Shown one piece after another: positions 13,225 through 64,000 of a DNA stretch of 64,000 bases. This DNA comes from Takakia lepidozioides (taxonomy: Eukaryota; Plantae; Bryophyta). The stretch's first letter is position 1. Every line of letters begins with the position of its first letter. Where the stretch lies: positions 6,014,001 to 6,078,000 of the forward strand of contig CM060732.1 of assembly GCA_030704615.1 (NCBI GenBank), in the 5' to 3' direction. The notes beneath the pieces were generated by a model. It saw only the letters and a program-made list of their open reading frames with translations. It was not told the origin of the DNA and ran no database searches. Made by a program: the position numbers and the translations under genes.

Positions 13225-13262
13225 CTTAATTAACTAAGGAACAAACTTTAGTCTCGTCAAAC

Positions 13263-13811
13263 TGTCAAGGACGAGAGCATGACTGAACACAAATAAGAGA
13301 TCAGACTAGAGGTACAAGACTAGACAAGAAGTCAAGGTCGGCGTGCCGAATGCATGATGGGTATACATGAATGAAGATGATCTTTATAACAATGGACAAA
13401 AGTACAAGATACTGGAACTTGACTTGGATATTGGAATGCTGGAAACTGGACTAGAGTACTAGATATTGGAAACTGGACTAGAGTACTAGAAGCTGGACTG
13501 GAGTACTGGGACTGGAAACAAGAGTAGCTTGAACTTGTGTTGGCGAGACTGAAGAGTGTCAAGTCTCGCCTCCTGGCTACTAGGAGGTTCCCTAAGAGGC
13601 TTCCCCAAAAGAGGTTTCTTGATGGAGAAGTTTCCTCCAAAGGAAGCTTCCTGAGCAGTTTCCCAAGTAACTCTTGGTAATTTGATAAACTTTCGGTAAC
13701 TCGGTAACTTATGGTAACTTATAGTAAATCGTGGTAACTTTTGGTAACTTGTTAACTTGGTAACTTTTGGTATTTACTCCTGGTAAGTTCCTCTGGGCTA
13801 TGTCCGTGACA
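13263..13811 (-). repeat. 5' LTR of family A copy 1
   Basis: Direct repeat of 7942-8539, followed by TSD AGTAG. Confidence 0.92.
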
Positions 13812-22190: not shown

Positions 22191-22203
22191 CTTTAGTTGC
22201 ATT

Positions 22204-34820: not shown

Positions 34821-34860
34821 GATGAGGCCAATCCCAAGGACGATCGCGTACTGAACACTA

Positions 34861-34873
34861 AGCTCTGATACCA
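34861..34873 (-). promoter_or_regulatory. Primer binding site complementary to the tRNA-iMet 3' end
   Basis: TGGTATCAGAGCT 2 nt inside the 5' LTR boundary; the same site occurs at 50747-50759. Confidence 0.9.
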
Positions 34874-34875
34874 AG

Positions 34876-35605
34876 TGTCGCGCACCTCACTTCGGTAAAC
34901 TCTCCCCCCTCAAGTCATAGTTACTCGCTTGATGCGCGCGCCTAACTCCCAACCTGGCCACCGGGCCAACTTGGAGCTCCGGCTGCTCACCGGGGCATAC
35001 CGGTCCCCCCTTTGATCTCCCAAAGAACCCTCCAACGATTTGGAACCAGCGGAATTCCCTTTGGTAGTTGGCAGTCCGGAACAGCTCCCCACTCTTTGGT
35101 CGCTTTCCGGCTCGCTCGCTTACTCACTAGTTTTGGTCACCAACGGGCTTGCACCGTTCTCGGGGTTACTACTCCCTATATATATACTTCTGTAGCTGTC
35201 CGCGGGGGTTTCACAAACAACCATGCCATTTTATGGCGAACCACCACGAACACCCTCGACTCCCGGTGATGAGTCGCAGTGAGTCTTGGCCCACCCACCA
35301 CGGCCCCTATGGACCGTGATGAGTCCCAAGACTCCCCACGACTCCCACCACGAGGTCTCCGCCCCAAGGTGAGTCCTATGCCACCCCCACTAAGTCCCGC
35401 TAAGCTATCACCACCCCTTGTGGAGCCACCCCCACCGCAACCCGGTGTGCCGGGCTCCACCTAGTGAGCGCCTCCGCCTCCTTGAGTGCCTTGAGCACTC
35501 AAGGGTGCTTCAGCCCCCCATACCTATCGCTGTCACTGCCCCCACCACAGGGGCAGCCCCTCTTGCGTCCCGACCCCCCTGCCCTCAAGGCAAAGGGCCG
35601 CGACA
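34876..35605 (-). repeat. 5' LTR of family B copy 1
   Basis: Direct repeat of 28685-29415. Confidence 0.95.
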
Positions 35606-41600: not shown

Positions 41601-42453
41601 GATTGGTCTGCCGACACATAATTCTGCAAGATCTGTTTCACCACGGAATTCACTATTTTCGTTTGGCCGTCCGTCGTAGGTCGGAAAGCCGTACCTCATC
41701 TTGAGTCTCGTCCCCATCTTCTTCCAAAGTGCCCTCCAAAATTTACTTGTAAACTTTGGATCGCGGTCCGAGACAATATTCTTCGGGAATCCATGATGCT
41801 GTCACGGACATAGCCCAGAGGAACTTACCAGGAGTAAATACCAGAAGTTACCAAGTTACCATGTTATCAGAAGTTATCATGACTTGCCGTAATTTACCCT
41901 GATCTACCATGATTTACCATTACTTATCAAGTTACTGGGAGTTTATCAAATTACCAAGAGTAACTTGGGAAACTGCTCAGGAAGCTTCATTTGGAGGAAA
42001 CTTCTCCATCAAGATACCTCTTTTGTTTAAGGAAGCTTCTCCATCAAGAAACCTTTGTTTAATCTTGGAAACTTCTCCAGCAAGAAACTTCCGTAGGGGA
42101 AGCTTTTTAGGGAAGCTTCTTAGTATCCAGTATATATAGGAGGCGAGACTGGACACTCTTCAGTCTCGCCAACACCAGTTCAAGCTACTCTTGTTTCCAG
42201 TTTCCAGTACTCCAATCCAGTTCCCAGTACTCTAACCCAGTTTCCAGTATCTGATACTTCAGTCCAGTTTCCAGCATTCCAATATTCAAGTCATGTTCCA
42301 ATATCTTGTACTCTTGTTCATTGTTATAAAGATCGTCTTGATTCCTATTTATTCATCGTGCATTCGGCCACGCCGACCTTGACTTCTTGTCTAGTCTTAT
42401 ACCTCTAGTCTGATCTCTTATTTGTGTTCACTCAATTTCTCGTCCCTGACAGT

Positions 42454-42464
42454 TTGGCGAGACT
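42454..42464 (+). promoter_or_regulatory. Self-priming PBS (Tf1-type)
   Basis: TTGGCGAGACT is the exact reverse complement of AGTCTCGCCAA (42162-42172), which lies ~30 nt after the TATATATA box at 42131. Confidence 0.8.
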
Positions 42465-43502
42465 AAAGTTTGTTTCTTAGTTAGTTAAGATGGAAGGCAC
42501 ATTTGCGGAAATGGTCGCCACATTGCAGAGTCTTCAGCTCCATATGCAAGAACTTCGTACCTTTACCGCCCAATTGCAAACTGATCAGTCTCAAGATCTT
42601 GGCAACGCTCTCCACAATTTGCAACAACAAATTTCAGAGTTAAAGGAGTCGAACAATGGATCTTTAACCATACAAGTCCCTACTGCAACAGCTTCTACTG
42701 CAACGGTTCCTCTTCAACAGATTATGAGAGAACCAAATATCAGCATGCCCGAGAAATTTGATGGGACGAGATCAAGATTTCGCGATTTTGTTCAACAAGT
42801 ACGACTGTTCATACGACTACATCCACAACGCTACCCCGATGAAGGTACTCAAGTGGGATTCGTGGGCACCCTTTTATCAGGCACTGCCCTATCTTGGTTT
42901 GCACCGCTAATAGAAAAAAATTCGCATTTACTATATAATTTTGAAGCATTCATGTCCGAGTTCACTGCAACGTTTGGAGAGAATGATAGAGAGAGAGTTG
43001 CAGAGACAAAGATGCGAAATCTTCGACAATGAGTACGTCCTGCTTCCGTTTATGCTGCCGAATTTTGACAACTTGCGTGCGATCTCGACTGGAATGAGAA
43101 GAGCCTCATTAGTCAGTTTTGATGAGGGCTAAAAGATGATGTAAAAGATTTGCTGCTGACAATGCCAAACGTGAGTACACTGAGCGAATTCATTACCCAA
43201 GTCATTGCATGCGATAATCATTTGTTCGAAAGACGTCAAGAGAAGCAATATGGATGGTCGACGACGCACCATACCGCTGTTACTACGGCACCAAACACAA
43301 TGATCCATCACATATCCGGTAATGATCCTATGCAGATTGATGCTGTCCGATTCAAGCCATTGACGCCACAAGAAAAATAAAGACGACGCTCGAATGGATT
43401 ATGCCTCTATTGCGGAGAAGATGATCACATAGCATTAAACTGCCCCAACAAGAGAAGATTCAAAGCTCGGGGCACAACTCAAGTGTTCGATATGAGGAGG
43501 TT

Positions 43503-43560
43503 GGAAAACGAAGATGTCCAGTCACAGTAGGGACCATGCGGCTGGACACCCCAAATTCCT
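43503..43560 (+). promoter_or_regulatory. -1 programmed ribosomal frameshift signal at the gag/pol junction
   Basis: Heptamer G GAA AAC (43503-43509), 5-nt spacer, stem TGTCCAG/CTGGACA (43515-43521 / 43542-43548). gag stops at QSQ* while the -1 frame continues towards the protease. Confidence 0.72.
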
Positions 43561-46500
43561 CACAAAAAAAAAAGTCTCTTTCTACCTCCAGACCTTGTAC
43601 CTTGTTTCACAGTTCCAGTAAAGATCAGGATGCAAAATCGAGATATCTCCGTAGAAGAACTTTTGGACTCGGGCGCTTCAGCGTGTTTTATTGACAATGA
43701 CTTTGTGAAGCAACACAATTTAACGCTCGTAAGAAAGAAATTTTCGGCCCCTGTTGAAGTCATCGATGGACGACCGTTAGCATCAGGAAATATTGACCAT
43801 GAAACTCAACCTCTTGAAGTGAAGCTTAAAAATCAAGCATCATAGATTGTTTTCAATGTCATCCAGTCTCCAACAAATCTTGTGATCTTTGGACTTCCCT
43901 GGTTTGTACTTCATAATCCTGACATCGACTGGCGATCACGAAAAATTTCGGCAAGACAAAAATGCAAAAATACCAAAGGTATTCAACCCCTGTTTCTTGG
44001 AGCTAGAGCCTTCATGAGAGCTACGAAGAAAGACGCAACATTTGCACTTTATGTGACTCCGATCAAAACCACAACAGACCAAGGTACTTCGACATTACCC
44101 ACTCAATATCAAGATTTCAAGGATGTCTTCGAGAAGAAAAATGCAGACATGTTACCAGAACAGCAACTGAGTTGCAAGAAGGAGCTCAACCACCATTCGG
44201 CCCGATCTACAATTTATCTCAGACGGAGCTGGCTGCTTTACGCGAATACATTGATGAAAATTTGTCAAAGAATTTCATTCGACATTCGAAATCACCCGCG
44301 GTAGCACCTATCTTATTTGTGAAGAAGAAGGATGGATCGTTACGCATGTGTGTGGACTATCGTGGGCTCAACAAAGTCACTATAAAAAATCGTTACCCAC
44401 TACCGCTGATTTTCGGACTCCTCGAACAACTTGGATGAGCAAATTTTTTCACAAAGATCGACTCCAGAGGAGCTTACAACCTTGTACAAATAAAAGAAGG
44501 AGACAAATGGAAGACTGTTTTTCGCATAAGTGTTATGCCTTTCGGTCTTACAAATGCTCCAGCAATTTTTCAACACATAATGAATGACATCTTTCGAGAA
44601 TTTTTAGATAACTTTGTAGTCATCTATTTGGACGACATTTTGATATTTTCACAGAATGAAGAAGAACATGGTCGCCATGTATGCCTTGTCTTTCATAAAT
44701 TGAGAGAAAAATGACTATATGCCAAGTTGGAAAAATGTCTTTTCCACCAATCTGAAGTCGAATTTTTGGGCTACATTATTTCCGACAAACGCGTCTTTAT
44801 GGATCAGAAGAAAATACAAACCATCATCGAGTGGATTAAACCAATTTCGGTCCGAGATGTACAATGTTTTTTGGGATTTGCAAATTTCTATAGATTCTTC
44901 ATCAAGGACTACTCCAAAATTGCTGCACCATTGACACGACTCACAGAGAAAGACAAATTTGTATGGGACGAGAAGGCTGAAGCAGACATTTACAACGGCT
45001 CCAATACTGGTACATGCAGACCCATCTAAACCATTTATTTTGGAAGCAGAACTTTGCACTTGGCGCGGTACTCTCTCAATATGGTACAGATGGCCGACTT
45101 CACCCTGTTGGTTTTCGTTCTCGCAAATTTTCCGCTGCGGAGATCAATTATGAAATCCATGACAAAGAACTTCTAGCAATTATTGATGTTTTTGAGGAGT
45201 GACGTCATCTATTGGACGGAGGTAAACATCAGGTCACAGTCTATACTGATCACAAAAACCTCGAGTATTTTATGAGTGCTCGTGTTTTGAATCGACGTCA
45301 AGCGAGATGGAGTATGTCACTAGCAAGGTTTGATTTTGTTATTATCTACCGTCCCGGACATCTTCAAGGAAAACCAGATGCTCTTTCTCGACGATCGTAT
45401 CTTGCGCCAAAAGAAGGGGATGCAGCTTTTGAGCAACAGAAATCCATCATCTTGAAATCAACAAATCTCCAATTGAATATGCTATCTATGTCCACCTATG
45501 ACAATGTAGAGATCATAAAGGAGATTCAGGAAGCACTGAAAAACGACCAATTTGCTACGACACTACGAAGTCAACTAAATCGACCTCGAGACAACCCACA
45601 TGTTACAAACGACTTCGAATTCAAAGATGATTTACTTTATTTCAAGGGACTTCTCTATGTACCTCCAGGACCTACACGACTTTGAATTCTTCAAACATGT
45701 CATGATCTTCCGGCTGCAGGACATTTCAGCTTCAACAAAATAATGGAATTGATATCCAGGGACTATTGGTGGCCGCAGATGTGGAAACTCGTGAAAGAAT
45801 TTATAAAATCTTGCGACACGTGTGCTAGAGCGAAGGGACCACGACATCGACCTTACGACCTTCTTCAACCAATACCCATTCTCAAGGGTCCATGGTCGTC
45901 CGTGTCTATGGACTTTATTACGGACCTTCCAATTTCCAAGACCACCGATTCAATCATTGTTATTGTAGATCGTTTTACGAAGATGACACATTTCATTCCA
46001 TATAATAAGACGGTTACCGGCGAAGAAACTGCAAGACTCTTCTTCAATAATATCTACCGCATTCATGGACTCCCGAAGGACATCGTATGTGATTGAGGAC
46101 CACAGTTCATATCAAATTTCTGGTCACGACTTTCAACATCACGCCGACGCTCTTGAGACGATGGGCCACCAATACGACGCGTACTTCCTCGTCTGGACCC
46201 CGTACGACGGCAAGTGGAGCCTACTCAAAGTCTAATAATTCTGTTGGAGGTTGAGGCTTCGGATTCAGAGGGCAACGAAATCATGTTTGAAGGCAGCTTC
46301 AAAAATCAAAATGTTCAAATCACTGCGTGGTTCCAAGTTCAAGGTGTTGGACACTATCAATGGTTGCAGGGACCTATAAATCATTTGAGTCAAGAACGAA
46401 GAGCCGAATACTTGGCAAGTATCATTCGCCGGATTTTGGATTTTCTCCAACTCTAAGCAAGTCCAAGATTTTACCGCTCCTCAAGGAACTCGGCGCTAGA

Positions 46501-49500
46501 AGAGGGGGTGATGTCACGGACATAGCCCAGAGGAACTTACCAGGAATAAATACCAAAAGTTACCAAGTTATCACGACTTACCGTAATTTACCATGATCTA
46601 TCATGATTTACCATTACTTACCAAGTTACCGGGAGTTTACCAAATTACCAAGAGTAACTTGGGAAACTGCTCAGGAAGTTTCATTTGGAGTAAACTTCTC
46701 CATTAAGATACCTCTTTTGTTTAAAGAAACTTCTCCATCAAGAAACCTTTGTGTAATCTTGGAAACTTCTCCAGCAAGAAACCTCCATAGGGGAAGCTTC
46801 TTATGGAAGCTTCTTAGTATCCAGTATATATAGGACACTCTTCAGTCTCGCCAACACTAGTTCAAGCTACTCTTATTTCCAGTTTCCAGTACTCTAGTCC
46901 AATTCCCAGTAGTCTAACCCAGTTTCCAGTATCTGGTACTTCAGTCCAGTTTCCAACATTCTAGTATTCAAGTCGTGTTCCAATATCTTGTACTATTGTT
47001 CATTGTTATGAAGATCGTCTTGATTCATATTTACTCATCGTGCATTCGGCCACGCTGACCTTGACTTCTTATCTAGTCTTGTACCTCTAGTCTGATCTCT
47101 TGTTTGTGTTCACTCAATTTCTCATCTCTGACAGATGCTTGAAGACGTGGGCGAAGTAAAGTCGCCCCATCTCCTGCGCCGTTGCCGTCTCCTTAGTGGG
47201 GATGAAATGGCCATTTTACTGAACCTATCCACCACCACCATGATTGCATCGAATCCTTTTGACGGCGACATAGCAGTCATGAAATCCATTGAGACACTTT
47301 CCCAAGACCCCTCTGGAATCGGCAAGGGTTGTAACAGCCCCGCTTGCTTTTTGTACTCGCTCCGGTTTTGTTGGCATGTGGTGCATGTCTTGACATACTC
47401 CTCGGCCTCCTCCCTCAGTTTGGGCCAGAAATACTCTTTCTTCGAGAGTGCCGCGATGCGCTTGGCTCCGCTGTGGCCCGCAAGCGAGCCATCGTGACAT
47501 TCCCTCAAGAGACTATCTCTGATCCCTCCCTTCGGCACGTAGATGCGCTTTTGCTTGTACCGGAGTAGTCCATTGTGCAAGTGGAACTGCGATTTAACCC
47601 CCATCCTCAAGTCCCGCATCACGGACTTCGTCATATCATCCTGCTGGTAAGCCTTCCAAATCTTCCTTTGGAGCGTCGTCTCGCCCCTATACACCAACAT
47701 GAGCTGCTGCTTTCTACTTAAAGCATCGGCCACCACATTGTCCCATCCCGGTTTAATTGGATATCCACGTCGAACATCGGCCAAGTGTCTTGCCACCTCA
47801 GTTGTTTTGGGGACAACTTAGGCTACGTGGCAAAATACTTCACTGTGACATTGTCCGTGAACACCTTCACCGGGTTGGAACCAACATAGTGGTGCCAAAG
47901 CTCAAGGCAATGCACCACCGCCTTCATTTCTTTCTCATGTGTAGGCCACCGTCGCTCCACTTCATTCAGTTTCTTACTTTCGTAAGACACTAGACGTCCA
48001 TCCTTCATGAACACACCCCCAATCGCAAAGTCCGATGCATCTGTATGAATCTCAAATGGACGGTCGAACTCCGGGATTTTCAGGACTAGAGCTTCCGCCA
48101 TCCGCTGCTTCAACTCGGCAAAAGCTTGGCCACAAAAGGTGTTTCATACCCATACCTTGGACTTACACAGAAGGTCTGACGGTGGCCCCGTGATCTTGGC
48201 GAAATTTCTCACATACTTTCGGTAGTAGGAGACGAGTCCTAGGAAGGATCGCACTCCCGGGACCGAAGTCGGAGGCTCTCAGTCCAAGATCGCCCTCACC
48301 TTTCTGTCATCCATTTTGATTCCATCCTGTGTAATCACATGCCCTAGGAACTCCACTTTTGTGACCCCGAATTCACACTGTGAAGCTTTGGCATACAGCT
48401 TTCCTTCCCGCAATTTATGGAACACCCTTTTGAGGTGCTCCAGGTGCTCTTCCTTCATTTTCGATTACACCAAGATGTCGTCAATGTACACAATCACAAA
48501 GTCATCCATCCACTCGTAGAAAAGGCTGTTCATTAGCGTGCTAAAGGTCGCGGGTGCATTGGTGAGCCCAAAAGGCATCACCAAGAACTCATATGAACCA
48601 TATCTTGTCCTGCACGCGGTCTTTTCCTCATCTCTTTCCGCCACTCGGATTTGATGGTAGCCGGAGCGCAAATCGATCCGGCTGAAATACTTCGCTCCTG
48701 CCAACTGATCGAAGAGGTCCTCGATCCTTGGCAAAGGGTACCGGTTTTTGATAGTCACCTTATTTAGAGCCCTGTAATCGACACACATCCGCAACGTCCC
48801 ATCCTTCTTGTCTGTGAATAGCACCGGGGCTCCGTAAGGTGACTTACTCGGCCAGATGTACCCCTTTGACATTAGATCCTTGAGCTGGGCCTTCAGCTCG
48901 ACCAACTCTCTGTGGCTCAACCGGTAGGGCGCCTTGGCAGGCGGCTTTGATCCCGATATCACCTCTATCTTGTGGTCAACTCCTCTTCGCGGTGGCAAGC
49001 CGCTTGGTAAATCCTCCGGCATCACATCCTGGTATTTCTCCAAGATCCCCTTGATCCAATCTGGGCTCAGCTCCCTATCAACTTCTCCTTCCACTTGTCT
49101 TATATAAAACAAAAATTGGGGCTCGTGTGGCTCCTCCACGGCCCACTCCTTTGCTGACAGCAGGTTTATTTGCCCTCCCACTCGGTTGGGCGTTTCCGAT
49201 ACCTGTAAAACTTCGCCACCATCCCCACACGGTAGCGTGACTATTCTCTTGCGGCCATCTATGACCGCTCCGGATTTGCTCAGAAAGGTCATCCCCAAAA
49301 TGAGATCCACTCCATCAATCTCGCAAATGGTGAAGTTCTCACGTCCCTCCCAACTCCCGAGCTAAAGAGGAACTTTGAACGCCAACCTCGTCGCCAATTG
49401 TGGTTCTCCTTTGGCAGAACGCACCTCAATAGAGGCCCCCACATCACTTGTCGGGAGCCCCAGCTTCCGTGCCGTTGCCGGTGTCATGAAGGAGTGCGAC

Positions 49501-51912
49501 GCTCCTGTGTCCACCAATAACGACACGTTAGTTCCGGAAATTATCCCACTCACGAACATTAACTGACTCCCTTTACGCAAGGCGCTAGTTTCTTGATATA
49601 ACTCACAAGAGTAGTTGCCTACCTTGCAAGTCTTGGCGACCACCGCCTCCACCAAGCGGCTGATGGAATCTTCGGACAGCTCCGCGGTCGCCCGAGTCAT
49701 GTTCAATTGTCGGGGTTTTGCGCACTTCTTAGTCATGTGCCCAGGCTCCCCGCAATTAAAGCACACTCCATCGAAGGTCGCATTCTGTCCGCCAGAAGCC
49801 GCCGCACCTAATTTTCTTTTCGGGGCACCGAGTGCCGCTTTAACGTGTAAAGGCCCTCCCTTCGATTTCCATGTGCCATAACCGTACGGCCTTGTCTTTC
49901 GCCCCTAGGGACATCCGAGAAACATTCAGCCCTTTCAATTGCCTCGTTCAAAGTCTTAGGTGGCTTCTCCTCCAACTTCCGCCTGGCCCATGGGGCTAGT
50001 CCCGCCACAAAGTTGAAGACCATTTCTGGTTTTGCCATATCCGCGACTTCAAGCAACAGTATATTGAAAGTCTGAACATATCCCCGAATGTCATCCGTTT
50101 GCTTCAAATTCCTCATCTTGTCTCGGGCGAGCCAGGACGCATTGGGGGGCACAAACTGTCTTTTCATAAGTTCTTTGAACCCACTCTAACTCAAGGTTTC
50201 TGGGTTTGGACCTTGGTCATGAAGGCGTTTCTGCCACCATTGTTGAGCATAGCCCCTCAAATAGGTGGGAGCCACTTCCACCCGATCCTCGTCACTCAAC
50301 TTGGCCGCCCGGAAGTACTGCTCTAGCTCCAAGAGCCAGGTGTTGAGTGCCTTCCGATTTTGGACGCCCTCGAAGGTGCCGGGTTCCTTAGGCTCACCTT
50401 AAACTTTGCCTTAGTGGAAGTGGCATCAGCCGCCTTCAACACATCTTTCAACGTCCTGCCAAACTGCGCCAACAACCCTTCCCAAAAGGTTGCTGGCATG
50501 GGAGGCATCTGTGGGTCTGGCGGAGCCTTTGGGAAGTCCTCGGGCTCCGACTCCCAAAATTCTTCCCATTCTTGAGCGGCCTCACTTTCAGAAGCATGAA
50601 TCGCCTCTTCCAATTGCCGCTTTGGTGACACGTCGCCCACACCGGGCTCACCAGGATCATCATCTTTCGGGCCATTCCGCTTTCGTTTTGTCATGCCCGA
50701 CCCCATGATGAGGCCGATCTCAAGGACAATCGCGTACTGAACTCTAAGCTCTGATACCAAGTGTCGCGCACCTCACTTCGGTAAGCTCCCCTTCAAGTCA
50801 TAGTTACTCGCTTTGATGCGCGCGCCTAACTCCCAAACTGGCCGTCGGGCCAACTCGGAGCTTCGGCTGCTCACCGGGACATAACGGTCCCCCTTTACTC
50901 CTCCACCAGACCCTCGCTCAATTTGGGCCTAGTGGAAATTCCCTTTGGTTGTTGGCAGTCCGGAACAGCTCCCCACACCTTGGTCGCTTTCTGGCTCGCA
51001 CGCTTACTCACTAGTTTTTGGTCACCAACGGGCTTGCACCGTTCTCGGGGTTACTACTCCCTATATATACTTTTGTGATTGTCCGCGAGGGTTTCACAAA
51101 CAACCCAGTCATTTTATGGTGAACCACCACGAAGACCCTCCATTCCCGGTGATGAGTCGCGGTGAGTCTTGGCCCACCCACCACGGCCCCATTGGACCGT
51201 GATGAGTCCCAAGACTCCCCACGACTCCCACCACAAGGTCTCCGCCCCATGGTGAGTCCTATGGCACCCCCACTAAGACCCACTAAGGTACCACCACCCC
51301 TCGTGGAACCACCCCCACTGCAACCCGGTGTGCGGGGCTCCACCTAGTGAGCGCCTTTGCCTCCTTGAGCGCCTGGGCACTCAAGGGTGCTTCAGCCCCC
51401 GTACCTATTGTTGCCACTGCCCCCACCACAGGGGCAACCCCTCTCGTGTCCCGACCCCCTGCCCTCAAGGCAAAGGGCCGCGATAATAGTGAACTCAGAT
51501 TTGCAAATCATCTCATCAAGAGGGCTATTTTTCTGTCAATCACTTCAACTTCTGCAAATCTTAGCTTGGAAAATAATTCAATGCACATGCATGAACAACA
51601 AGTGAGTGGAGTGTCAACCTGCTCTGTAGGAGGTGCTTGTGATGCTCTAATGACTCGTGCAATGGTACTCTATGCGGCCCTTCCTTGGTGCTCGTCACTA
51701 GGTCCACGCCGGCCTTCCTAGTCGTATCCAAGTCTCCCTTTCCCCACACGAGATGGCACAACCTCCTTGATCAAATTCAAAAGGGCCTCAAGGCCAATCA
51801 ATGGACTAGGCTCCTTGCCTTAATCCTCTAACAATCCTTCTACACTAGGGAGCTTCAAGCTCCACTCCATAGGACCTAGGCTTCCTCAAGCCACAAACTA
51901 GCAAGCATCTAT

Positions 51913-51958
51913 GGAAATGCGGCGCCAAATTCCCATCAAGCGGGGATGACTAGAGGGG

Positions 51959-51990
<32 letters not shown>

Positions 51991-52876
51991 GTTAGACAAC
52001 TTGCAAAAAGCACGGGTGGATGGCAGTCGAGACGGAAATGCGGCACCGCATTTCTGTCTCGATTGGCATCCCCCCTTGCATGATGATCATCATTTGGGGA
52101 AAAGAGGCGGGGAGGGGGGGTGAACCTGGCGACGGAAATGCGCTGCCGCATTTCTGTCCAGACTGACACCTACCCATCACTTTATACCTGGTGGGACGGA
52201 AATGAGGTGCCGCATTTCCGTCCGGGGTCCATTGGACCATGCATTTCTACCATTGTGGATGGAAATGCGGTGCCGCATTTCCATCCTAACTGACACCTAA
52301 GCATCCTTGATACATGGTGGGACAATAATCCGGTGCCGCATTTCCGTCCGGGCTTCCATTCCACCATGCCTTTCTAATAGTCTGGACGGAAATACGGTAC
52401 CGCATTTGCGTCCAGACTTACACCTAAGAATCCCTTAATGCCTGGTGGGACGGAAATGCGGTGCCACATTTTCGTCTGGCTCTAACTGTACAATCCTTAA
52501 ATAGGTGGTCGGATGGAAATGCGGTGCCGCATTTCCGTCTAGACATTGCTTTCCTTACAGTTTGGACGGAAATGCGCCACCGTATTTTCATCCGGACTGA
52601 TAGTGGACCATCCCTTCATTTCTGGTGGGATGGAAATGTTGTGTCGCATTCCCGTCCCAGAAGACCACTTCAGTGGCGTACCTGGCAGTTGAACTGGAAT
52701 GCGGCGCCGCATTTCCGTTCGGACTGCCATTGTTCTTTTTCTTCATGACAGGTTCGTCGGAAATGCGGCATCCCATTTAGCACTGACTGCCATCCACCCT
52801 TGTATCTTTATCGTCTCTCGGGATGCGGTAGGGAGGTATCCTGATCGAACGGCCACTAATGCGGCACCGCATTCGG
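51913..52876. repeat. Second array of the GGAAATGCGG-NN-CCGCATTTCC palindrome (14 copies)
   Basis: Starts at 51913, 52034, 52134, 52198, 52261, 52324, 52388, 52452, 52515, 52568, 52632, 52695, 52759 and 52855; spacing mostly 63-64 bp. Confidence 0.93.
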
Positions 52877-53493
52877 TCTGTTGACTCGTGGAGGCTGAAA
52901 TGGCAGTTGAAGGGGTCATTGCCAGCACATGTTCGGAGGCGGCGGTGCCGGACCATTGCATCATCACTGACTTTCCGACAGACACTAGACCCTATTTCTT
53001 TGAATTCAATTTACCGACGACGCATGGACCCCCTGCCTCACGAGGAGACACGTAGGCCCCGACCTTTCGAATCCATACGGTGCATCTCCGCCGTTTGATG
53101 TCATCTTTCGCTTGTGACTCTTTCATTGCTCTAGCACCCCTTGCAACACCACTCTTCGCCTCATTTCTTCTCTTCAGTTTCTCTTATGCTACAGCCTGAT
53201 AGTGAGAAAGTTGCTGTGCCAGAGAAGAGACGTCGTCGCAAGCTCCACAAACTATACTTCGGACCGAGACCAATGCCGAAGAGGAGGCAGCTTCGCCTTC
53301 TGGAAGAGATGGTCATCACTGCGCAACAAGCGACGCGGTTGACGCAGCCTCCAGTGAGAACTCGGTGATTTCGGGATGCGGTCCCTTGATCGAGCACCGA
53401 AACCTTCTTTGCGTTGTGTTTTTTTGTTGCTTCGTGTGGCCTATTGCTAGTATACTTGAATGCATGGAAATGTTTGGATGTCTGAGTTCAAAG

Positions 53494-54725
53494 ATGGAGG
53501 TGGTGGAGGGATCAAAGGGCTCTGAAGACCCGCAGGATGAAACGGGGGGAAGCTACTGCAGCGCGCACACACCCCCGACCTTCGAGCACGGGTCCTCCTA
53601 TCAGGCCTAGCCTTGTGCTCTTCAAGGACGTGCTTTGGAAAGGTAAAGGTTTCAAGTCAAAAGCAGCAGAGAAAGAGGTACGTTTGACGATGAAGATGAT
53701 GGAAAGTCACCAACAGGGGTCGTCCCCTTCTCTAGCAAATTAAAGAGCAGGAAGCATCAGGCGGTTGTTAAGGAATATACTACCCCACTAGATCAGTCCC
53801 CTTCCCCTACGAAGAGAAGAAGCAGAAGGGGGCAGTGGAGAATCGGACGAGAACGGAGGAGTCCCCTTCCCCTGCAAAGAGTAAGAAGCAGAAGGGGGCG
53901 AAAGCAAGGACAGAGCAGTCTCCAGCAAAACCCCTTCCACGAGTTGAAGCTCCTAGTTGATCTTTCAGTGGATGAAGGTGTTGTTTATCAACATGGGGAG
54001 CTCGACTTCTCCTACCTGGAACATGACTTTTGTGACAACAGGGGAGGTATGGATGACTACATTCTCCAACATGATCTGCCCGGCTACATTCCCAAGAATA
54101 CAGGCACGGCTCTGGGTGGTCCATCTGAACAGCCCTTTTCCCCACCCCCAAAAATGTCGCGGGAGGATTTCCAGAGTGCAGCGGATCAAATGTTGGAGGA
54201 GACTCACAACAACATTGGCAGAGTTCTTAGGACCATGGTCTTCCCTTGCACACTGCAAATTCCACTATGTCGAATGGTCTCCCTCCTGATAGTGAGGCCT
54301 GCTCTCGCATGGGATGTGAATAAGATGAAGCTTGCATTCTGAGAAGGCTATAGGCTGGGGTATGCCACCTTCTATGTTTCCATTGAGAATGAGGAAGGTG
54401 AATTGCGTGGCCTGACAGCGAAAGAGTTTGCAGCCTGGGGTCCCCACTAGCACACTCGCAACACAGAATTCGAAAAAATGCTAAAGGATAATCCAGTGTT
54501 CGGTGGCCAGCCAAAATCCCCTCTACCCCCTCTTATTGGGAAAGCTGTGAAAATTGGCTCAGCAAAGAAGACACTCTTCAACCTCCCGCGGGGGCACCCG
54601 TGCATGCCAGTGGAAATGAAGGGCAGGCCGAAGTTGGAGCCAGAAACAGTGATTTTGTGTGCGAATGAGAGTTTTTTGAAGGCATTGGATGGCCGGCCGG
54701 TCGCCAAGTTGGCATACATCAATGC
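53494..54725 (+). pseudogene. N-terminal part of the MTase-element gene (possible ParB/Srx-like domain), internally deleted
   Basis: Frame 53944-54725 with two stops reads IPLCRMV..VRP..DVNKMKLAF*EGY..FYVS..WGPH*..N.EFE..L. It continues PKS..AKKTLFNLPRGHP..PVEMK.RPKLEPETV..NESFLKALDG..AKLAYI, which aligns with 2046-2255. Confidence 0.65.
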
Positions 54726-54890
54726 CATCCATCTATGCTTCTCTCCCCCAGAGAAGGTTTCATCCAACTCCCACCGGATGGAAATAGGGCGCCGCATTTC
54801 CATCCGGGGGGCTCGCGATTGGCTATCATCTTTCCCCCGGACAATATATAGTTCATCCAGAACCATGACAATGAATTTAAACTTTGGAGA

Positions 54891-55075
54891 TTCAATATGG
54901 AATTAAAAAACATTGCCCAACCTCCTTCATTGGGAGGTCCTTGTCCCCCTATGACCGTGGAACCCTATACCCTATTCCCGTGGACAATCATTTGTGAAAA
55001 AAATTCTTGCTCATGATTTTTTCGGTAGTTACGAGTCTGCTCACGGCTCATGGCTCATGAAATAGCAGCCCCCCC
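54891..55075 (+). repeat. Shared terminus of the MTase/palindrome element (copy 2)
   Basis: Homologous to 7233-7440; preceded by a single palindrome at ~54779-54801. Confidence 0.85.
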
Positions 55076-55154
55076 TCTCAAGTCTAGACCCAAAAATAAA
55101 GCTCGCAAGCACCCACGCCCAACTCCATCTCCTCCCCCTCTACTGCCCACAGTC

Positions 55155-56385
55155 ATGGAGCCCAAATTCCATGATGCCTGCAGCATCATTGACCCGCCTT
55201 CTCTAAAATTTCCTAACGCGACACTGCCCGTGGAGGACACACCTCCAATAACCGGAGCTCAAGACAACGATCACACAATGCGGGAGCCCTCTGAAGTGAC
55301 ACCACCACCTACCAACCACGACCAGCTGAGCAATGGACCAATCTCCTCCACTCACAGAGCTAAGAGAGCTTCCAGCGAGGTCAACAGTGCCGAGGACCCA
55401 TCTCCCTCAGAATCCAAGAAGTTGCGTAACCATCTACAAGACACCCACGAGTTGCAATACCAGGAAGTCAGTAGCGAGAAGCCTCTACCACACCTCTGGT
55501 ACGGTTTCCAGAACATGGAACTCTATGCTTGTGAATGCAACAGGCCCGTCATCACCGAACACCGCACCATGGAGGAGCTTCTCTCACTCGGTATCCCGCC
55601 CACGGAATGTGAGAAATGATTCACTGCAGGAAAGCTTTTCCCCACGTTCCGCAGCGACTCTATCCCGCTACCCGCCCTGACGGCCAGAGCGGTCAATTCT
55701 TACACCTTACGCAATTGCCAAGTGGTACCAGTGTCAACCCAGCAATGGGGCTTCCAGCCAATCCATACCATATCATGATTCGATTCGACACCGAGGTTGA
55801 ACTCCCACGCTCACTCATCCTCTCCCGGGCCACCCAGCGCTTTGCGGACATGGATATCAAGCTTGATAACGTACTTTACTCCCCTATATCAGTTTACTCT
55901 AAACCTGCCACTTAGATTTGGTCTGGTCTGCTAAAGTCGAGCTCCTACATCCCGAGATCGACGGCTTGGCCCTGCTCCGTGGAGACAGGGCCTTTGTTCT
56001 AGAAATCGAGCCAGGATATAAATTGCAAGGGAAGGTGGAGAAAGCGTTTGACCCCACTGCCTCAACTGACAAGCTCTCCCTGTACTTCACCGACGAGATA
56101 CTACAAGGTACCATGGGATCGCAGCTGGCTATGCATTTTATCACCGAAACCAACGACCACGACGATAATTACGAGAACCTTCACGTAACAAAGCCCAACC
56201 ACGACTCCTCCTTTGGATTCATCAACGTGGCAACGAAGGATACAAGAACAAGAATTATGGAGCTCGGGGTACGCATCGACAATGAACATCCCCTGGAATT
56301 GGTAAGTCGTCAGCTGAGTCCGATGATCCTGACATCAACTGGAAGCACAACAAGCTGCACAGCTCTAAATCAAAAGTGCAGCTAG
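55155..56385 (+). pseudogene. Degraded ~400-codon ORF of unknown family (possibly LINE ORF1-like)
   Basis: Three consecutive ORFs (55050-55619, 55616-55915, 55918-56385) in shifting frames; disordered N-terminus, then globular-looking sequence. Confidence 0.4.
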
Positions 56386-56762
56386 ATTTGGGTCTCTGAG
56401 ATTTGGATCGTAGGTTGTTCTAAGTTAGTAGCTTAGAGCCGCTATGTTTTCTCTCCTACCCTTACCTCTTTTGCTAGGCAGCGTATTCCTGCTGTCTCCT
56501 GTTTCGGCTCTGTCCCATCTTCTTAGTCTTCTTCCTGGGCCTACCTGGCCCTCGTTGCTCTCCCTCCTTGCCTTTGATTGGCTCTTTCCCGCTTTATCCC
56601 CCTTAATTTCTGCTAGTGCTGGGTGTTCCCCATGTGTTACGCTTTACGACCTTCTTGGAGGTTATTTTTTCCTCCATCTGTGCTACTTTGTCTTTCCTTA
56701 ATAAAATTTTGCCAGGGCCACTGTTCCTGTTTTAATTATATATATATATATAACTCAACTAT

Positions 56763-57195: not shown

Positions 57196-57723
57196 TGTCG
57201 TGCGCATACGTATCGCTACACAACTACATCGCTGTCCAAACCACACCACACATATATGCACAATAAAGTAGTCTGCCACAATGATAAGAAAAGCTAAAGG
57301 ACACACACTCTCAACACAAGAAATATGAAATCCATCGCTATCACTCTTTAAAATAGAAGTCGAGCCAGGGGCACCCCAAGCTATGGGGACTCCACCCCAC
57401 AACAACCTACACTCCCATCATAAGCACACTCAGATCTAAACGCATGAAGGAGCTCGGTCGCGCAGGCTCAACTCGAGAGAGATGAGCTGCGCGACTGCGC
57501 TCTCGTGAAGATAAGGCGTTTCAGGTGTCAAACTAAACTTGACACCTGACTTAACACTTGACATAAATCCAAGTGTTAAATACAAATAACTAGCTTTATT
57601 CTAGTTGTTTTCACACTGTGCTTATTTAACTTGACAGCTATTGTGCGCATACGTATCGCTACACAACTACATCGCTATCCAAACCACACCACACATATAT
57701 GCACAATAAAGTAGTCTGTCACA
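57196..57723 (-). repeat. 3' LTR of the DNMT-Gypsy element, with an 81-bp direct repeat at both ends
   Basis: TGT..ACA ends with an adjacent purine tract; 57200-57280 nearly equals 57643-57723. The partner LTR is not in the window. Confidence 0.7.
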
Positions 57724-57989
57724 ATCGCCCCCCTAGCTGGTGGGTAGGTCCCTCTACCTCCAGATAGCTACAAGATGTAATAGCCACAGCCGTACTAAGT
57801 CCTCTATCACTGTCCCTATTGCACTCAAACCCTATAGACCAAGAGGCCGGGTACAAGAGTAGCCCCATCGTTAGTCGCCGTCTTGCAATCTGTGAACTTG
57901 AGCCAGGACCTCGTGTGTTCAAGGTCTCCTAGTAGCTGGGCCTTGCGTTTCTTGTTAGCCTTCCATGGTTGTATCCACTCCCACTATCC

Positions 57990-58127
57990 AATGCGATGTG
58001 GACATAACCAATCCCCATCCGGAACCATCAAGAGGTGGAGTCAAGCATCCCATATGCCAACCTCTAGAGCATCGATCACACACCCAGCATGGTGGCTGCC
58101 CCTCTAGCAGACCCACACAACATGCAC
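57990..58127 (-). pseudogene. PHD finger at the integrase C-terminus
   Basis: Manual translation across two 1-nt frameshifts gives CMLC..MLVCDRCSRGWHMGCLTPPL..VPDGDWLCP, a C4HC3 pattern with the last Cys altered. Confidence 0.85.
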
Positions 58128-58128
58128 C

Positions 58129-60950
58129 TCAAACCTGCAGATACCACTGCCAGTTTGGGTCTATCCTGCCATCGACATTCGGAAGGTGACATGGCGCACA
58201 ATTACGCACATGGTCCTTCCAAGTTATGCCATCCTGACCCTCCAAGACGAAGACGCCTGAGGGCAAGACCTCTCGAACCCTCAAAATAACACGTCCTGCA
58301 GTCACATCCAAGGTCGTATGAGCAGTCTGCTGCAGATAGACGTAGTCACAGGGTTGAATCTCCGAACCCCAGGACGATAGCCCCCACGTATAGTAGATAC
58401 CTCAACGTATCACGGTGTTGTGCAATGGCAAGGTTCTCAAAAGCCATGGGCATGACTTTCTTGAACAACTCTGCACGCTGCTCACATGCACCGTGCCCAC
58501 ACATCTGGATCGTCAAGGTTAAGAACGGTGTAGCAGCTTCTCTGCGAATGGATGTAGGCAAATCCGGCTCTTGGCCAAAGAGAAGAAAGTATGGTGAGAA
58601 GGAGGCAAGTGATGCTTGCTTGCTGAACCTGTAGCCCATGGCTAACCAGGGTAATTGAAGGTCCCAGTCTCCTAGGTGTCCCTTCTGCAAGCCATACTTG
58701 CACAAACCCCTCTTACTGTCTGAACAACTCTCTCTGGCCAAGCCTCGGCCTCAGGATGATCCCGAGAAGTGGTGCGGTGGTCTATCAAGGCCTTGTCACA
58801 CAAAGCCTGAAACTCCCCCAAGAACTCTCTCCCTTGGTCCGTGAGTACCTCAGCTGGAGCACCGAATCGGCTAAGCACACAATCCAAGAATGCATACGCA
58901 GCTCCCTCACTAGCCTTATCAGGCAATGGAACCAATTCAATCCACTTGGAGAAGTGCTCCACCATCACCAACACGTACTTGTTGTGGCGCATGGTCAGTG
59001 GCAACGGCCCTGCGAAGTCAAGACTCCACCTGTAGCCCAATCCCATGATCGGAAGAGGGTGCAATTGTGGAGTAGGGGCGTTGAATGAAGCACGCACCCT
59101 GTCACACACCATGCACCTAGCCACAAATTGTTGCACCTCTGTGTGCATACCACGCCACCAATACTGCCCCTGCAGTAGACTATGAGTGCGTCGCACCCCA
59201 AAATGCCCCAACTCCTCATGGGCATGCCGCACTAACCGTGCCCGCTATGTTGGGTGAGGCACAATCCTCACTCGACCATCCTCCCACACTCGGAGCAGGT
59301 GTGTCCCCTCCCACTTGAACCTCTTGGCTCGTTGTAGGATCCGATCCCTCTCCTTGGCAGTCACAGTGGCTGCAGTGTCTCCAGTGCGGAGGTAGTCCAA
59401 CACAACTGAATCCTCATGTATATCTTTGGCGCCACCTTGCTCATTGCTGGCCTCAGGGTCCTCAGACACTTGATCTACAGTCATCCCTGTTGCAGGTCCA
59501 ACCTGGCCTTCCGCTGCCAAGATACACAGAAATGCAGATGCATGCCATCCGGGCACCATCTCCTCGTCCGTCTCACCATGCCACCGAGCTCCAGTGTCAT
59601 CCTGCTGGCTCGTGCATGGATTGCGACTCAACCATCTGCATTGCGATTGACCAAACCGGTCGATGCACCACCTGAAAGTCATACTCTTGAAGGATGAGTG
59701 CCCACCGTGCAAGCTTCCCCGTAAGCTTGTCTGACTCCATCAACCACTTGAGTGGTTGGTGATCCGTGACAAGGGTGAAGAGATTGCCGTATAGATAGCA
59801 CCTGAAGTGTGCCACGGCCCACACTGCAGCTAAGCATTCTCCCTCATATGAGCTATACTTAGACTCTGCAGCATTGTTCAAGCGGCTAGCATAAGCCACT
59901 ACGAACTCTCTTCCCTCATCATCCACCTGTGTGAGCACCGCTCCAAACCCCAGCATGCTCCAATCTGTATGCAGCTGAAAAGGACGCCCCCTGATAGGTC
60001 GTCTCAAGATGGGCGCCGAGGTCAACCTCGCCTTGAGCTCTTGAAAAGCTTGTTCTTGCTCATCTTCCCACTGCCACTCCTGGTCCACCTTGGTCAGCTT
60101 GGTTAGAGCCTTTGCAATGGCACTAAATCCCTTAACAAACCGTCTGTAATAGTTTGCTAACCCCATGAAAGCTCGAACTCGGCTCACATCCGTGGGGCGT
60201 GGAACCTGTGCAATGGACTCTACCTTAGTCTGCTGTACCCCAATCCTCCAGGATATATCATGTGACCCAGATACTCAATCTGGTTGTGGAAAAACTTGCA
60301 CTTGCCCGGATGTAACTTCAATCCGTGCGTCCTCAAGCGCTCAAATACCCCCTGAAGGTGTCTCTCATGCTCCTCCACCGTAGCACTAAAGATGATGATG
60401 TCATCTATGTAGCACCGAGCAAACTCCACCCTGCTAGAATCCTGTCCATGACTCTTTGAAACTCAGCGGGCGTTTTTAAGCCCAAATGGTAAGAACCGCC
60501 ACTGGTATAGGCAATCCTTCCCGTGCTCATTGATCCCCCAGAATGCCGTCTTTTGCTTATCCGCCTCCTTGATCGGCAACTGGTGATATCCGGATCGTAA
60601 ATCCAACGTGCTAAAGACCTTGGAATGCCCAATGGCATCAAAGATCTCCTCTGGTGTCGGCATGGCATACCTATCGGACTTGGTCTGACGATTTACAGGC
60701 CGGTAATCACCGCACATACGTCTCTCCGTCCAATTGCCATAGACATCCTTCTTGGCTGGCATCACTGTGGCTGAAGCATACTCTCCACCAGAGAGCTCCA
60801 CCAAACCTGCCTCCCAAGATCTTGAGTCCTCATCTGAATCAAAGACCTCTCCATGTCACTGTATCTATAGGGTCTCCGAAAGATTGGCGTGTCAGTGGCC
60901 AACTCAATACGGATCTCTTGACCCTTCAGTGCTCCCAAGTCCTTCAAACT
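58129..60950 (-). pseudogene. RT-RNase H-integrase of the DNMT-Gypsy element
   Basis: ORF fragments 60762-60947, 60463-60804, 60220-60429, 59597-60187, 59245-59712, 58672-59232, 58346-58741 and 58129-58311. Confidence 0.92.
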
Positions 60951-61379
60951 GAAGGCAAAGCAATTCCTGTAAGCCCTCAGGAACCGCCGTATACGTCGTC
61001 TCTCTCCTCCGGTGACAATGGGTCCAATGTCAGGCTCCCAATTGTCCTCCGTAACTGCAACCTTAAGTCCAATGGGCTTAGAGGTAGAGGACGCGTCCCG
61101 TGGTTGCTATGCTGCAACCTCTTGAGCAGTACTCCCTGCCTGCTCAGTCAATGACAAGGCCTCATCCTACCCATCATCTCATCCTTGAGGACCTCCTCAA
61201 CCCGAGAAGAATCCCAACCTCATCCATCACAGCTGCCTTGGCTGCCAACTCCCTCTGAACCTCGAGCACCTCCCATGTGTGTCATGGATGTCTACACCCC
61301 GTGGTCCTCACCGGCTCGCCCCCACTCGCTGCCTGTACCGTCTCGGTAGGCAGAGAGACCGTCAAGGAAGTGCACTCCG

Positions 61380-62340
61380 CACTCTACGTTGCTCAGCCAT
61401 AGCCAAGCTGATAATCCAGGTCAAGCAATTGAGATCCATTGCTTGCCCCAACACCTGACGACGTGATGCCTCAGAAAGAGAAGGCACCGCCGTGGTCCCC
61501 GTGGAAAATCCCATAGCCCGCTCTCGCTCGTCGGCATTAGGCTCCACTAACTGTTGCAACTGGCTATCCACAAGAGGCCAGGTCCACCATCCGAAAAGCA
61601 TGGGATCCTGGGAAGCTGAGCAGTGTAGGTAATGCTGCTCGTGGTTGACCCACCCTGTTGACCACTGCCAAAGGCAACGGTCATCGTGTCTAACACGTTG
61701 AGACTGCCTCCCTGTGTCCAAAATGCCATCCACGGTGAGGTGTGCTGGCCGCTGCACCCCATCAAATGCACGCTTGAGCAGTGCGGGTGGCATCAAGTTA
61801 GTCCACCAAAGCCGTGGACGATGAGCCCGTGACCCCACTGCAGCTGCATCCAGCAACACTGCTGACCCAAGCCACGACCGGACTTGATGCACACTGGCCA
61901 TCACCCTGGCCGAGAATCACCCATCAGTGGCACATTCTCCAAGAAATATGCTGGAGATACAGCTTGATGAAGCTGCAAGTGGCGCAAAACCGCACCATCT
62001 CCCAAAACAGACCCGTCCTCGAGTCTCGCAATCCATTGCCATGCCGGTTGATGAATGCCCTTGGCAGGGCCAACCTGCCACTACCAGATCAATGGAGCCA
62101 ACCTGCTCCAAATCCGGCGCCCCAGCAGCAACAAATGTCTGCTGGCAAGGCTTGTTGGTATCCACGAACTGCAGACACTGGCAACAAAGCAGGGTACTGC
62201 TGTACCAACTGAGCAACATGGCGCAGTGAGACGCGTCGTGCAGTCTCATCCCTCTCCACATACAGGTAACGCCTTACCCGCACACCTGCCTGTAGCACAG
62301 CAGCCAATCCGGTGCTGATCCCGCCAAACAAGTCCAGAAG
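61380..62340 (-). pseudogene. C5 cytosine DNA methyltransferase domain within pol
   Basis: Motif I LLDLFGGIST (62340-62311), II YLYVE, IV DLVVAGWPCQG (62090-62058), V LRDSRTGLFWEMVR, VI YFLENV (ENV 61939-61931), VIII HRPRLWW, IX/X ERERAMGF..RRQVLGQAM; several frameshifts. Confidence 0.93.
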
Positions 62341-62779
62341 GCAATGCCTTCATCCGGATACTGCCATACAATAGGTGTGGTATCCAATGGTGACAACTGA
62401 GGTGGTCCTGGTGCAATACCCGCACTCTCCTCCTCTCCTGACGGTACAAAAGCCTCTACCCAGGCTTGTTGCACCCGTCGATCAGCAAACCTGCTGCAAA
62501 TCCTTGCTCGTACCCCACAATGGAGTGTGAGCAACCATGGCAGCAACTCCGCCATACCATGCATGTCATCCTGCTCTGCTGGAGGTGGCACATCCTCTGC
62601 ATGGGCATTGCCTTCCAGCAACTCTCCAGGCCAACTAACTGCAGATATAAAGGCGGCTAGTGTTGGCATCTTGCCCCGTTGGGCAGCCGCAATACCCCCA
62701 ATGAATGTCACAGGGAGCTGTGCACGACGACCATCCCCTGACTGCCATCCAGGCCTGTAGAATGTTGACTCCTCCCAAA

Positions 62780-63100
62780 AGTCCAGGGTGAAGCCTATGG
62801 GGTATAACACTGCCCCACCAACGAGGACATCGTAAGAGACCGCGTCTGTCACAATGGCCTTGGCTTGCATTACTGAGCCATCGATAGGATGATCCGCTGC
62901 AGTCTAATGGCCAACTGATGCCGTGTCATGCCCCGAGCCTGCTCTGATCCTCCCAGAGATGTCTGTATCTGGAAAGGACAAGACTCCATATCCGCCTCCA
63001 TGAGGCCGAAACCTGCAATAGTAGCTCTGCCCAACATCAGTGGCTGAGCTCCCGAGTCCAACAAGACCCGCAGTGGCCGGTACTTCTTGCCTGCCGGTCC
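62780..63100 (-). pseudogene. Retroviral-type aspartic protease of the DNMT-Gypsy element
   Basis: RVLLDSGAQPLMLG ... SYDVLVGG (DSG catalytic motif and D.L.G motif). Confidence 0.8.
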
Positions 63101-64000
63101 ACTCAAAGAGAAAATGTCATCCTGGTTGTCTAACAAGACAACTCCAGGTGTCACCATGGCGCGCTCAAAAGCTGGCCTAGCTGGCAGCTCCGTCAACCTG
63201 GCAGCTGCAGCTTGCCATGGCGCAGCCGTGGCACTCTTGACCCTCAAATCCGAGGATCCCTCTGCCACTACACCTTCCACTAACTCCGCAGAAGATGAAG
63301 TGACCTCCCCACTCTCACAGAGTGTTGCTGCTAGTCTGAACACTGCAGTTGGCCTTACCCCCGGCGTCACAATTATGGTTGCCGAGAACAGTGGGGCTTG
63401 ACACACAGAGGTGGCTGCCCCCAATAACACACCGCTGCACTAGCCTTGGTAGCAGGTGTCAGTGCTGCACGTGTAGCTCTCCCCAATGCATAGTAACCTC
63501 CGCCTCGGTAACAGTCGGGCGAGAACTAGGTGTCATGGATGGCGTCGACACAGTCTCGCCAATGTGAATGACTGAGGAAGCCTCGCCTGACGGCTTGCCT
63601 CCCCACGCTGTGGATCCAATTCCACCTCTGCACCTCAAGGCTCAGGAACTCGTGCTGCTCCTCGAGTCACAGCTGCAGCAGACTCCACCTGCACTAGTGG
63701 TAGTGCTGCTCCGCACATGAATCCCATGCCTCCCATAAACCCCTCTCTAAGAAGTAGGAGGTGGACCATCCCGCCGGGGAGCCGTTACCGCCTGAGCTAT
63801 AGCCATTGCAGCGAGCCTCTGCTCTAGCTGCTGAAGCCGGTTGACCATGCCTTGGTCACACCCTGACCACCGCGTCCTTGGCCATGTTGAGCTTGCCCTT
63901 GGCCTGCACCTCGTGCCCGACCACCTCGTCCTCTCTGGGCTGGTCCACCTCGCCCCCGGCCACCATTGTTCCCTTGGAATGGCCTGGGCGCAACTCAGGA

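Follow-up and report, generated by a model that had tools for sequence, protein, structure and literature searches.

A C5 cytosine methyltransferase (DNMT) domain lies between the protease (PR) and the reverse transcriptase (RT) of a Ty3/Gypsy element of the bryophyte Takakia lepidozioides, and, as judged from related sequences, this domain is a fixed part of a high-copy Ty3/Gypsy family. The element occupies one end of the stretch analysed here, the window, which comprises 64,000 nt (GCA_030704615.1, contig CM060732.1, positions 6,014,001 to 6,078,000). As a whole, we consider the following reading fairly probable: a dead copy of the family, in which a DNMT3-like enzyme would form the end of ORF1 and be followed by a leaky stop codon, the cDNA would be methylated at CG by the element's own enzyme, and integration would use joined ends. 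A methyltransferase borne by a Gypsy element is already known from Klebsormidium; elements of this kind have so far been described from one alga. Our literature search, in which subscription journals were thinly covered, found no bryophyte or chlorophyte Gypsy-DNMT3, no such stop and no split repeats made by an integrase. New here, relative to the literature searched, are the range over land plants and chlorophytes, the conserved stop of readthrough type, and the target-duplication and palindrome evidence for permuted integration.

Structure of the element and its methyltransferase

Minus-strand positions 64000 to 57196 hold the 3' two thirds of the element, in the order gag remnant, protease, C5 methyltransferase, RT, RNase H (RH), integrase (IN) with a C-terminal PHD finger, polypurine tract and three repeats (Table 1); the Ty3/Gypsy order PR-RT-RH-IN is thus present. 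The end of the window cuts the element, so that the 5' repeat, primer site, most of gag, the 5' end and the target duplication fall outside, and by analogy with relatives repeat A1, the partner of A2, would be expected beyond it. RT, RNase H and integrase of the window match Pfam with E from 2e-9 to 2e-36, Asp_protease_2 matches are weak and were obtained in open relatives, and the PHD finger is recognised in the open relative L065 (PF00628, E 2.6e-10). Frameshift-aware alignment, in which an X marks each break, counts 26 frameshifts and one stop over all aligned domains of the window copy, some of the 26, in weakly aligned spacer, being possible alignment artefacts. As assembled, this copy is dead. 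Its breaks may stem from decay or from assembly errors: other copies differ from the window in length in at least 12 places, three of them among the eight DNMT breaks, and 15 of 29 breaks lie near runs of three or more, against a background of 35%.

Table 1. Features of the element at the end of the window.
Feature	Position	Strand	Basis or remark
gag 3' part and gag-protease spacer	63200..64000	-	tblastn of Marchantia P0009/P0004, matching 63926-63780 and 63691-62897
Aspartyl protease, LLDSGA, catalytic D at 63058	62770..63075	-	frameshift near 62895 breaks the domain
DNMT3-like C5 cytosine methyltransferase domain, 8 frameshifts	61375..62350	-	motifs I-X, unpermuted order
Linker closing ORF1, about 90 codons	61110..61374	-	dN/dS 0.36-0.57 in three relatives
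Conserved in-frame stop TAG CAA CCA, tobamovirus-type readthrough context	61101..61109	-	comparison of loci
Reverse transcriptase, YIDD, 4 frameshifts	60100..61100	-	Pfam and frameshift-aware alignment
RNase H	59535..60076	-	Pfam and frameshift-aware alignment
Integrase, H2C2 finger and DDE core	58400..59412	-	Pfam and frameshift-aware alignment
Integrase C-terminal region ending in PHD finger, broken here	58000..58400	-	alignment to relatives
Polypurine tract TAGGGGGGCG	57726..57735	-	CTAG(G/T)GGGG tract likewise in L051, L065, L066, L068
Repeat B1, 87 nt	57639..57725	-	pair with B2
B1/A2 junction, decayed form of palindrome CACGACA-GC-TGTCA	57632..57645	-	putative integrase attachment site inside LTR
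Repeat A2, about 354 nt	57283..57636	-	position and analogy with L033, L051, L054, L068
Repeat B2, ends CGACA = element's 3' end	57196..57282	-	pair with B1

An earlier note on this DNA had recognised C5-methyltransferase motifs in order between protease and RT, and all of them were recovered on the minus strand between 62350 and 61375 by frameshift-aware alignment of an open relative to the window, with an X at each break. They read DLFGG (62334), YVE (62262), GWPCQG (PCQ at 62069-62061), ENV (61939), RAHRPRLWW (61829), ERERAMGF (61529) and GQAMDLN (61448). Motifs I, II, IV (PC), VI (ENV), VIII (RxR), IX and X and the fold of a C5 cytosine DNA methyltransferase are all present. The PF00145 search proposed in the note gave a divided answer: none of the three window pieces matched when taken separately, because the domain carries eight frameshifts, and open relatives matched with E of 8e-13 and 2e-13. 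With an open relative as query, the best PDB sequence match is DNMT3A (E 4.8e-11), compared with 1e-4 for DRM and 2e-3 for M.HhaI, and the top Foldseek matches of an open relative's model (pLDDT 71.8) are all DNMT3A, B or C (E 1e-15). Both results favour the DNMT3 type; going by these best matches only, the methyltransferase appears to be DNMT3-like and not DRM, with its motifs in unpermuted order.

In relatives the domain is under purifying selection. Between subfamilies, dN/dS lies at 0.09-0.19 in the eight unsaturated of 21 DNMT pairs; twelve pairs are saturated, and one within-family pair (L001/L002) gives 0.84 because of decay within one family. Catalytic residues are largely kept among 251 near-full domains (Cys motif in 228, EN in 233, RxR in 240). 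Motif IV reads EC, not PC, in 85 of the 251.

As to the role of the enzyme, we tentatively propose that the protease would free the DNMT in the particle and that CG sites of the new cDNA would be methylated there, the insertion arriving pre-marked. The element has a CG observed/expected ratio (o/e) of 0.52 versus 0.80-0.98 in other Ty3 stretches of the window, and at codon boundaries 0.32 versus 0.74-0.79; open relatives range from 0.27 to 0.75. We take this depletion as no more than a weak hint, since a LINE-like stretch that lacks a DNMT has an even lower ratio (0.33). The enzyme could instead be active on host chromatin after nuclear import (at the insertion site, on rival elements or on genes), or act as a DNA-binding protein of the particle, the cDNA staying unmethylated. 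Production at the level of Gag, proposed below, would far exceed the need of one cDNA, the PHD finger points to chromatin contact, and the enzyme of KnitGypsy-Dnmt3 from Klebsormidium gave no methylation in yeast, a result that its authors call inconclusive (PMC5890265, in part). We nevertheless regard these alternatives as rather unlikely, since the catalytic Cys, EN and RxR are kept in most near-full domains, and since a DNMT that stays part of the polyprotein, although it occurs at two different places there, would be in keeping with a function within the particle.

Other parts of the window hold ordinary Ty3/Gypsy copies without DNMT (28700-35430, 39270-41700, 46500-51500, 9250-13800 and 41800-46100), which stand in direct and inverted pairs, some nested. 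The LINE-like remnant, with zf-RVT and a zinc knuckle, lies at 17800-25000 on the minus strand and is strongly depleted in CG (o/e 0.33). Regions 51900-56400 and 1-8000 are related by common palindromic repeat arrays and a protein stretch (LFNPPGGHPFEPVEM / LFNLPRGHPCMPVEM) and are probably two copies of an unclassified element. On the plus strand, frames at 1974-3340, with DMIILDIPDG and later SPDFIQTIMEACTDLEGRVLDLICGTG, look like an amino (N4C/N6A) methyltransferase of the beta class whose catalytic motif is altered and whose gene likely has introns. Pfam gave no match for these frames and PDB an E of 1.5; atlas matches to N6_N4_Mtase clusters reach 0.86-0.88 only and are a lead. Palindromic GGAAATGCGGCGCCGCATTTCC repeats surround the frames, which may be part of a transposon.

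A stop codon between methyltransferase and reverse transcriptase

In the earlier note the DNMT was described as embedded in pol, and a search for intact copies with a single continuous ORF was proposed. Comparison of related loci shows another arrangement: in this clade the DNMT is the last domain of ORF1 (Gag-PR-DNMT), outside the RT polyprotein, with a conserved UAG-CAR stop before RT-RH-IN. Out of 80 loci, 24 without an anchor were left out; among the 56 scorable ones, 54 have an in-frame stop between DNMT and RT, as does the window, most of the 54 belonging to one peat-moss-like family and only about five subfamilies being independent. The stop is TAG in 38 loci and TAA in 16, CAR follows it directly in 52 of 54, and a C-to-T change in CAR could account for the remaining two. 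A sense codon stands at this position in L020 and L041 only, which share the same 3' flank (one insertion, by flank). The full UAG-CARYYA occurs in the window, L028, L049, L056, L065 and L066, whose flanking protein has diverged, and the window's nine bases at 61109-61101 show no difference in other copies among the 40 of 52 rows listed, from four runs. In the peat-moss-like family the stop is followed by CAA CCC ATG, a weaker motif match, CCC not being YYA; this ATG would also allow reinitiation.

Open relatives have two long same-frame ORFs split by a single stop (L065, with 1369 + 1047 aa, L066, L028, L002 and L056). The continuity of frame from protease through DNMT to RT that had been assumed does hold: DNMT-to-RT distances come in six different lengths, all multiples of three. 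Past the stop, no in-frame Met occurs before codon 85 in the window and codon 117 in L065, and both of these lie inside RT. Proteins of Marchantia, Calypogeia and Sphagnum, which are protein records only, end 96-98 residues past motif X, as would fit a DNMT at the end of ORF1.

Tobamoviruses use UAG-CARYYA as their type I readthrough signal (PMC5382211, in part). We consider it quite probable, from the sequence comparison, that RT-RNase H-integrase-PHD would be reached by readthrough of UAG-CAR-YYA. Since the DNMT lies before this probably leaky stop, Gag-PR-DNMT would likely be the abundant product and RT-RH-IN-PHD a minor readthrough fusion, and the enzyme would be packaged at Gag-like levels. 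The conserved stop, in predicting Gag-level enzyme, alters which roles are plausible.

The stop could also be a real termination, with RT-RH-IN translated from an RNA that is spliced or separate, or after reinitiation at an AUG close by. Ogre elements splice their protease-RT region. Here, pyrimidine-rich stretches and AG dinucleotides occur beyond the stop, gene models P0018 and P0037 rejoin just ahead of the RT start, a Coleochaete transcript encodes RT-RH-IN-PHD as a complete ORF alone, and in the peat-moss-like family an ATG stands three codons past the stop. The same two gene models, together with P0006, P0007 and P0010 (Marchantia, Sphagnum, Riccia), join DNMT to RT without a stop, so splicing remains a rival to readthrough; these are protein records only, and the bridging probably arises by predicted introns. 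Yet both frames are open up to the stop and in phase across six different lengths, CAR-YYA has persisted despite divergence of the protein on either side and saturation of synonymous sites, and neither the window nor L065 has an early Met for reinitiation. Termination in any of these forms thus appears unlikely.

With regard to readthrough, five folds of the sequence after the stop revealed no RNA structure in common, and our literature search found no retrotransposon paper on CARYYA. A contig of run X7, which is only guessed to be RNA, spans 59316-61478 without a skip and was not counted as evidence. Klebsormidium-like RT-RH-IN-PHD proteins (P0207 and P0210 clusters) likewise begin as separate ORFs of constant length, and therefore the break before RT may, going by protein records only, extend beyond the clade studied.

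Ends, repeats and integration

The 3' end of the window copy reads B-A-B, its two 87-nt B repeats standing 443 nt apart and the first directly following the polypurine tract. Two full terminal LTRs were found neither here nor in full-length relatives, which are built as A-coding-B-A-B (L033, L051, L054, L061, L068) or A-coding-B (L008, L020, L049, L071). Relatives begin with TGTC and end with GACA (TG..CA ends), and the window shows the integrase and the 3' CA. Target duplications of 4 bp directly flank A1 and the last B in relatives; they are exact in six of nine independent insertions and agree in three of four bases in the other three. The palindrome CACGACA-GC-TGTCA at the B1/A2 joint is kept in the peat-moss-like family, L065 and L066 and decayed in the window; in other copies a position near 57635 is joined to 57196 through an intervening GC. 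A1/A2 and B1/B2 diverge to a similar degree (90-94%). The sequence that follows A1 is the complement of a site in A lying 28 nt past a TATA box (14 of 14 in L068). In 8 of 20 loci no other site matched better, and in only 5 of the 20 did this self-priming match exceed every one of 200 shuffles.

The TG..CA ends, 4-bp duplications, internal palindrome and self-complementary primer site of the relatives together imply permuted integration. We therefore describe a model drawn from the relatives, to which the window contributes its 3' end, and which we hold likely as a whole. Transcription would start inside A, the RNA would be primed by its own 5' end, and if LTR reverse transcription follows its usual course, the cDNA would have B-GC-A as its LTR. 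The end of A would then be joined to the start of B, via a two-LTR circle or an end-to-end RT jump over one shared A, and the DDE integrase would cut the internal CA/GC/TG palindrome, giving A-coding-B-A-B, a circular permutation. A-coding-B copies would come from B1 x B2 recombination or from one-LTR circles. A plain circle model with random cut should also yield A-B-A-coding-B, which was seen at none of 18 visible 5' ends, an absence that the plain model does not explain; the choice of palindrome is therefore one-sided, for which an end-to-end RT jump or protection of one site could account. About 20 extra bases, as expected of imprecise end-joining, were observed at the A2/B2 joint of one relative (L061:10837-10857).

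The same ends might result from ordinary LTR elements rearranged after insertion, or from faulty assembly, without any permuted integration. The loci are short-read metagenome contigs, in which repeats misassemble, and many copies are deleted or decayed. However, target duplications directly abut A1 and the final B, the palindrome at the B/A joint has been kept between subfamilies whose dS is saturated, both repeat pairs are diverged alike, and the same design has been reported for Klebsormidium. It is very improbable that rearrangement or misassembly would produce all this. Target duplications around permuted repeats point to an LTR element in which the integrase acts on joined ends. It is a long-running question in retroelement biology whether circles can be true integration precursors.

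A wider reading, which we regard as doubtful in its entirety, would make this a Ty3/Gypsy clade of the whole green lineage, land plants including Marchantia among them, that produces an active DNMT3 in capsid-level amounts by readthrough and methylates its own cDNA in the particle. Its DDE integrase would cut the palindrome of end-joined circular cDNA, the circle being the normal substrate, and the methyl mark might choose which palindrome is cut.

Range of the family and comparison with known systems

A 184-aa DNMT piece has 55 longer relatives, down to E 8e-61, a level far beyond chance, the named ones coming from Calypogeia fissa (65%, first), Marchantia polymorpha, Riccia sorocarpa and Sphagnum; nearest to the window DNMT among named relatives are liverwort and moss proteins. 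Clustered at 50% identity, relatives with E up to 1e-30 form 234 clusters. A metagenome scan gave 412 candidate stretches, of which 98 were confirmed and 80 loci kept, and 57 pattern matches in a viral contig collection included no confirmed relative. Thousands of contigs from other copies extend over the DNMT stretch in each of four public runs, in the same way as over RT and integrase. The earlier note had foreseen a one-off insertion as an objection. That a host or bacterial gene inserted into the window copy alone is ruled out for practical purposes: the pieces alone lack a Pfam match and nothing else was found in its favour, whereas the 55 relatives, many with the DNMT in the same position, the metagenome loci, the coverage in four runs and the broadly similar grouping of DNMT and RT trees all stand against it.

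Three layouts occur among 132 proteins: DNMT after protease, with the record ending there; protease-DNMT-RT in one ORF (Closterium and unnamed proteins); and RNase H-DNMT-integrase (the chlorophytes Hariotina, Tetradesmus and Monoraphidium, including P0078, P0104, P0054 and P0096). In a DNMT tree of 85 rows, the window falls into a 29-row clade in which no member runs on into RT (SH-aLRT 99), and the RNase H-DNMT-integrase forms make up a 46-row clade (99). RT trees agree broadly with these groupings, with the Coleochaete transcript close to the clade that holds the window (93) and RTs of Klebsormidium in the wider group. All are quick trees without bootstrap, rooted only on ordinary Ty3 copies and carrying long-branch warnings, with RHdI rows thinned in one RT tree, and we therefore claim no direction of domain movement or transfer. 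Two members, P0043 and P0330, are labelled in NCBI as proteins of cyanobacterial MAGs, likely plant or algal contamination of bins.

Annotated Marchantia polymorpha genes (e.g. Mp4g09160, Mp8g17980) belong to the family, which implies uncounted DNMT3-like genes in bryophyte genomes. Five Marchantia DNA methyltransferases are listed in the accessible part of PMC5784723, none from a transposon. As methylation mutants and genetics exist for Marchantia, the question is testable in a model plant.

Signals of the UAG-CARYYA type are used in SIRE1 env and at some gag-pol junctions; we know of none between DNMT and RT. The motif found here is identical to that of tobamovirus type I readthrough (PMC5382211, in part), but belongs here to a retrotransposon, where it follows protease-DNMT.

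EpiLTRs of Euglena and Cymbomonas are also LTR retrotransposons with a cytosine methyltransferase, but theirs is sister to DNMT4 and accompanied by DAM and a chromodomain; their authors hold them distinct from streptophyte Gypsy-DNMT3 (bioRxiv 10.64898/2026.05.21.726589, in part). A DNMT3 of streptophyte retrotransposons is mentioned, with bryophytes not named in the accessible parts, in PMC12344493 and the same preprint. In Tcn1/Tf1-Sushi chromoviruses, which occur in bryophytes, self-priming replaces the tRNA primer (Neumann et al. 2019, PMC6317226, in part). The present family would share self-priming, as suggested by complementarity; compared by description, it differs in its DNMT, its permuted ends and a PHD finger in place of the chromodomain (L065 has the former and no chromodomain).

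Split-direct-repeat retrotransposons with a tyrosine recombinase (PAT/Ngaro type and SymbioDIRS-Dnmt3) share A-coding-B-A-B with our relatives, and SymbioDIRS also bears a Dnmt3, which methylates CG in yeast (PMC5890265, in part). Here, by contrast, there are a DDE integrase, protease, polypurine tract, TG..CA ends and 4-bp target duplications. With these duplications present and no tyrosine recombinase found in open relatives, the family does not belong to DIRS/Ngaro.

The closest described counterpart is KnitGypsy-Dnmt3 of Klebsormidium nitens, with DIRS-like repeats (de Mendoza et al. 2018, PMC5890265, in part), and the link to Klebsormidium drawn in the earlier note proved apt. The window element itself is closest to bryophyte elements; its DNMT was set beside that of KnitGypsy-Dnmt3 by description, our trees being without Klebsormidium DNMT, and the RT relatives include RT-RH-IN(-PHD) proteins of Klebsormidium, whose RTs belong to the same broad group. 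The available portion of PMC5890265 mentions no target duplications, internal palindrome, self-priming, PHD finger or Marchantia. Going by the description given there, both share the Gypsy domain set, an unpermuted Dnmt3-related DNMT under purifying selection, and the arrangement A-coding-B-A-B, of which the window shows the 3' B-A-B. They differ in that the DNMT of KnitGypsy-Dnmt3 shares one ORF with RT and RNase H, whereas here a conserved stop parts DNMT from RT.
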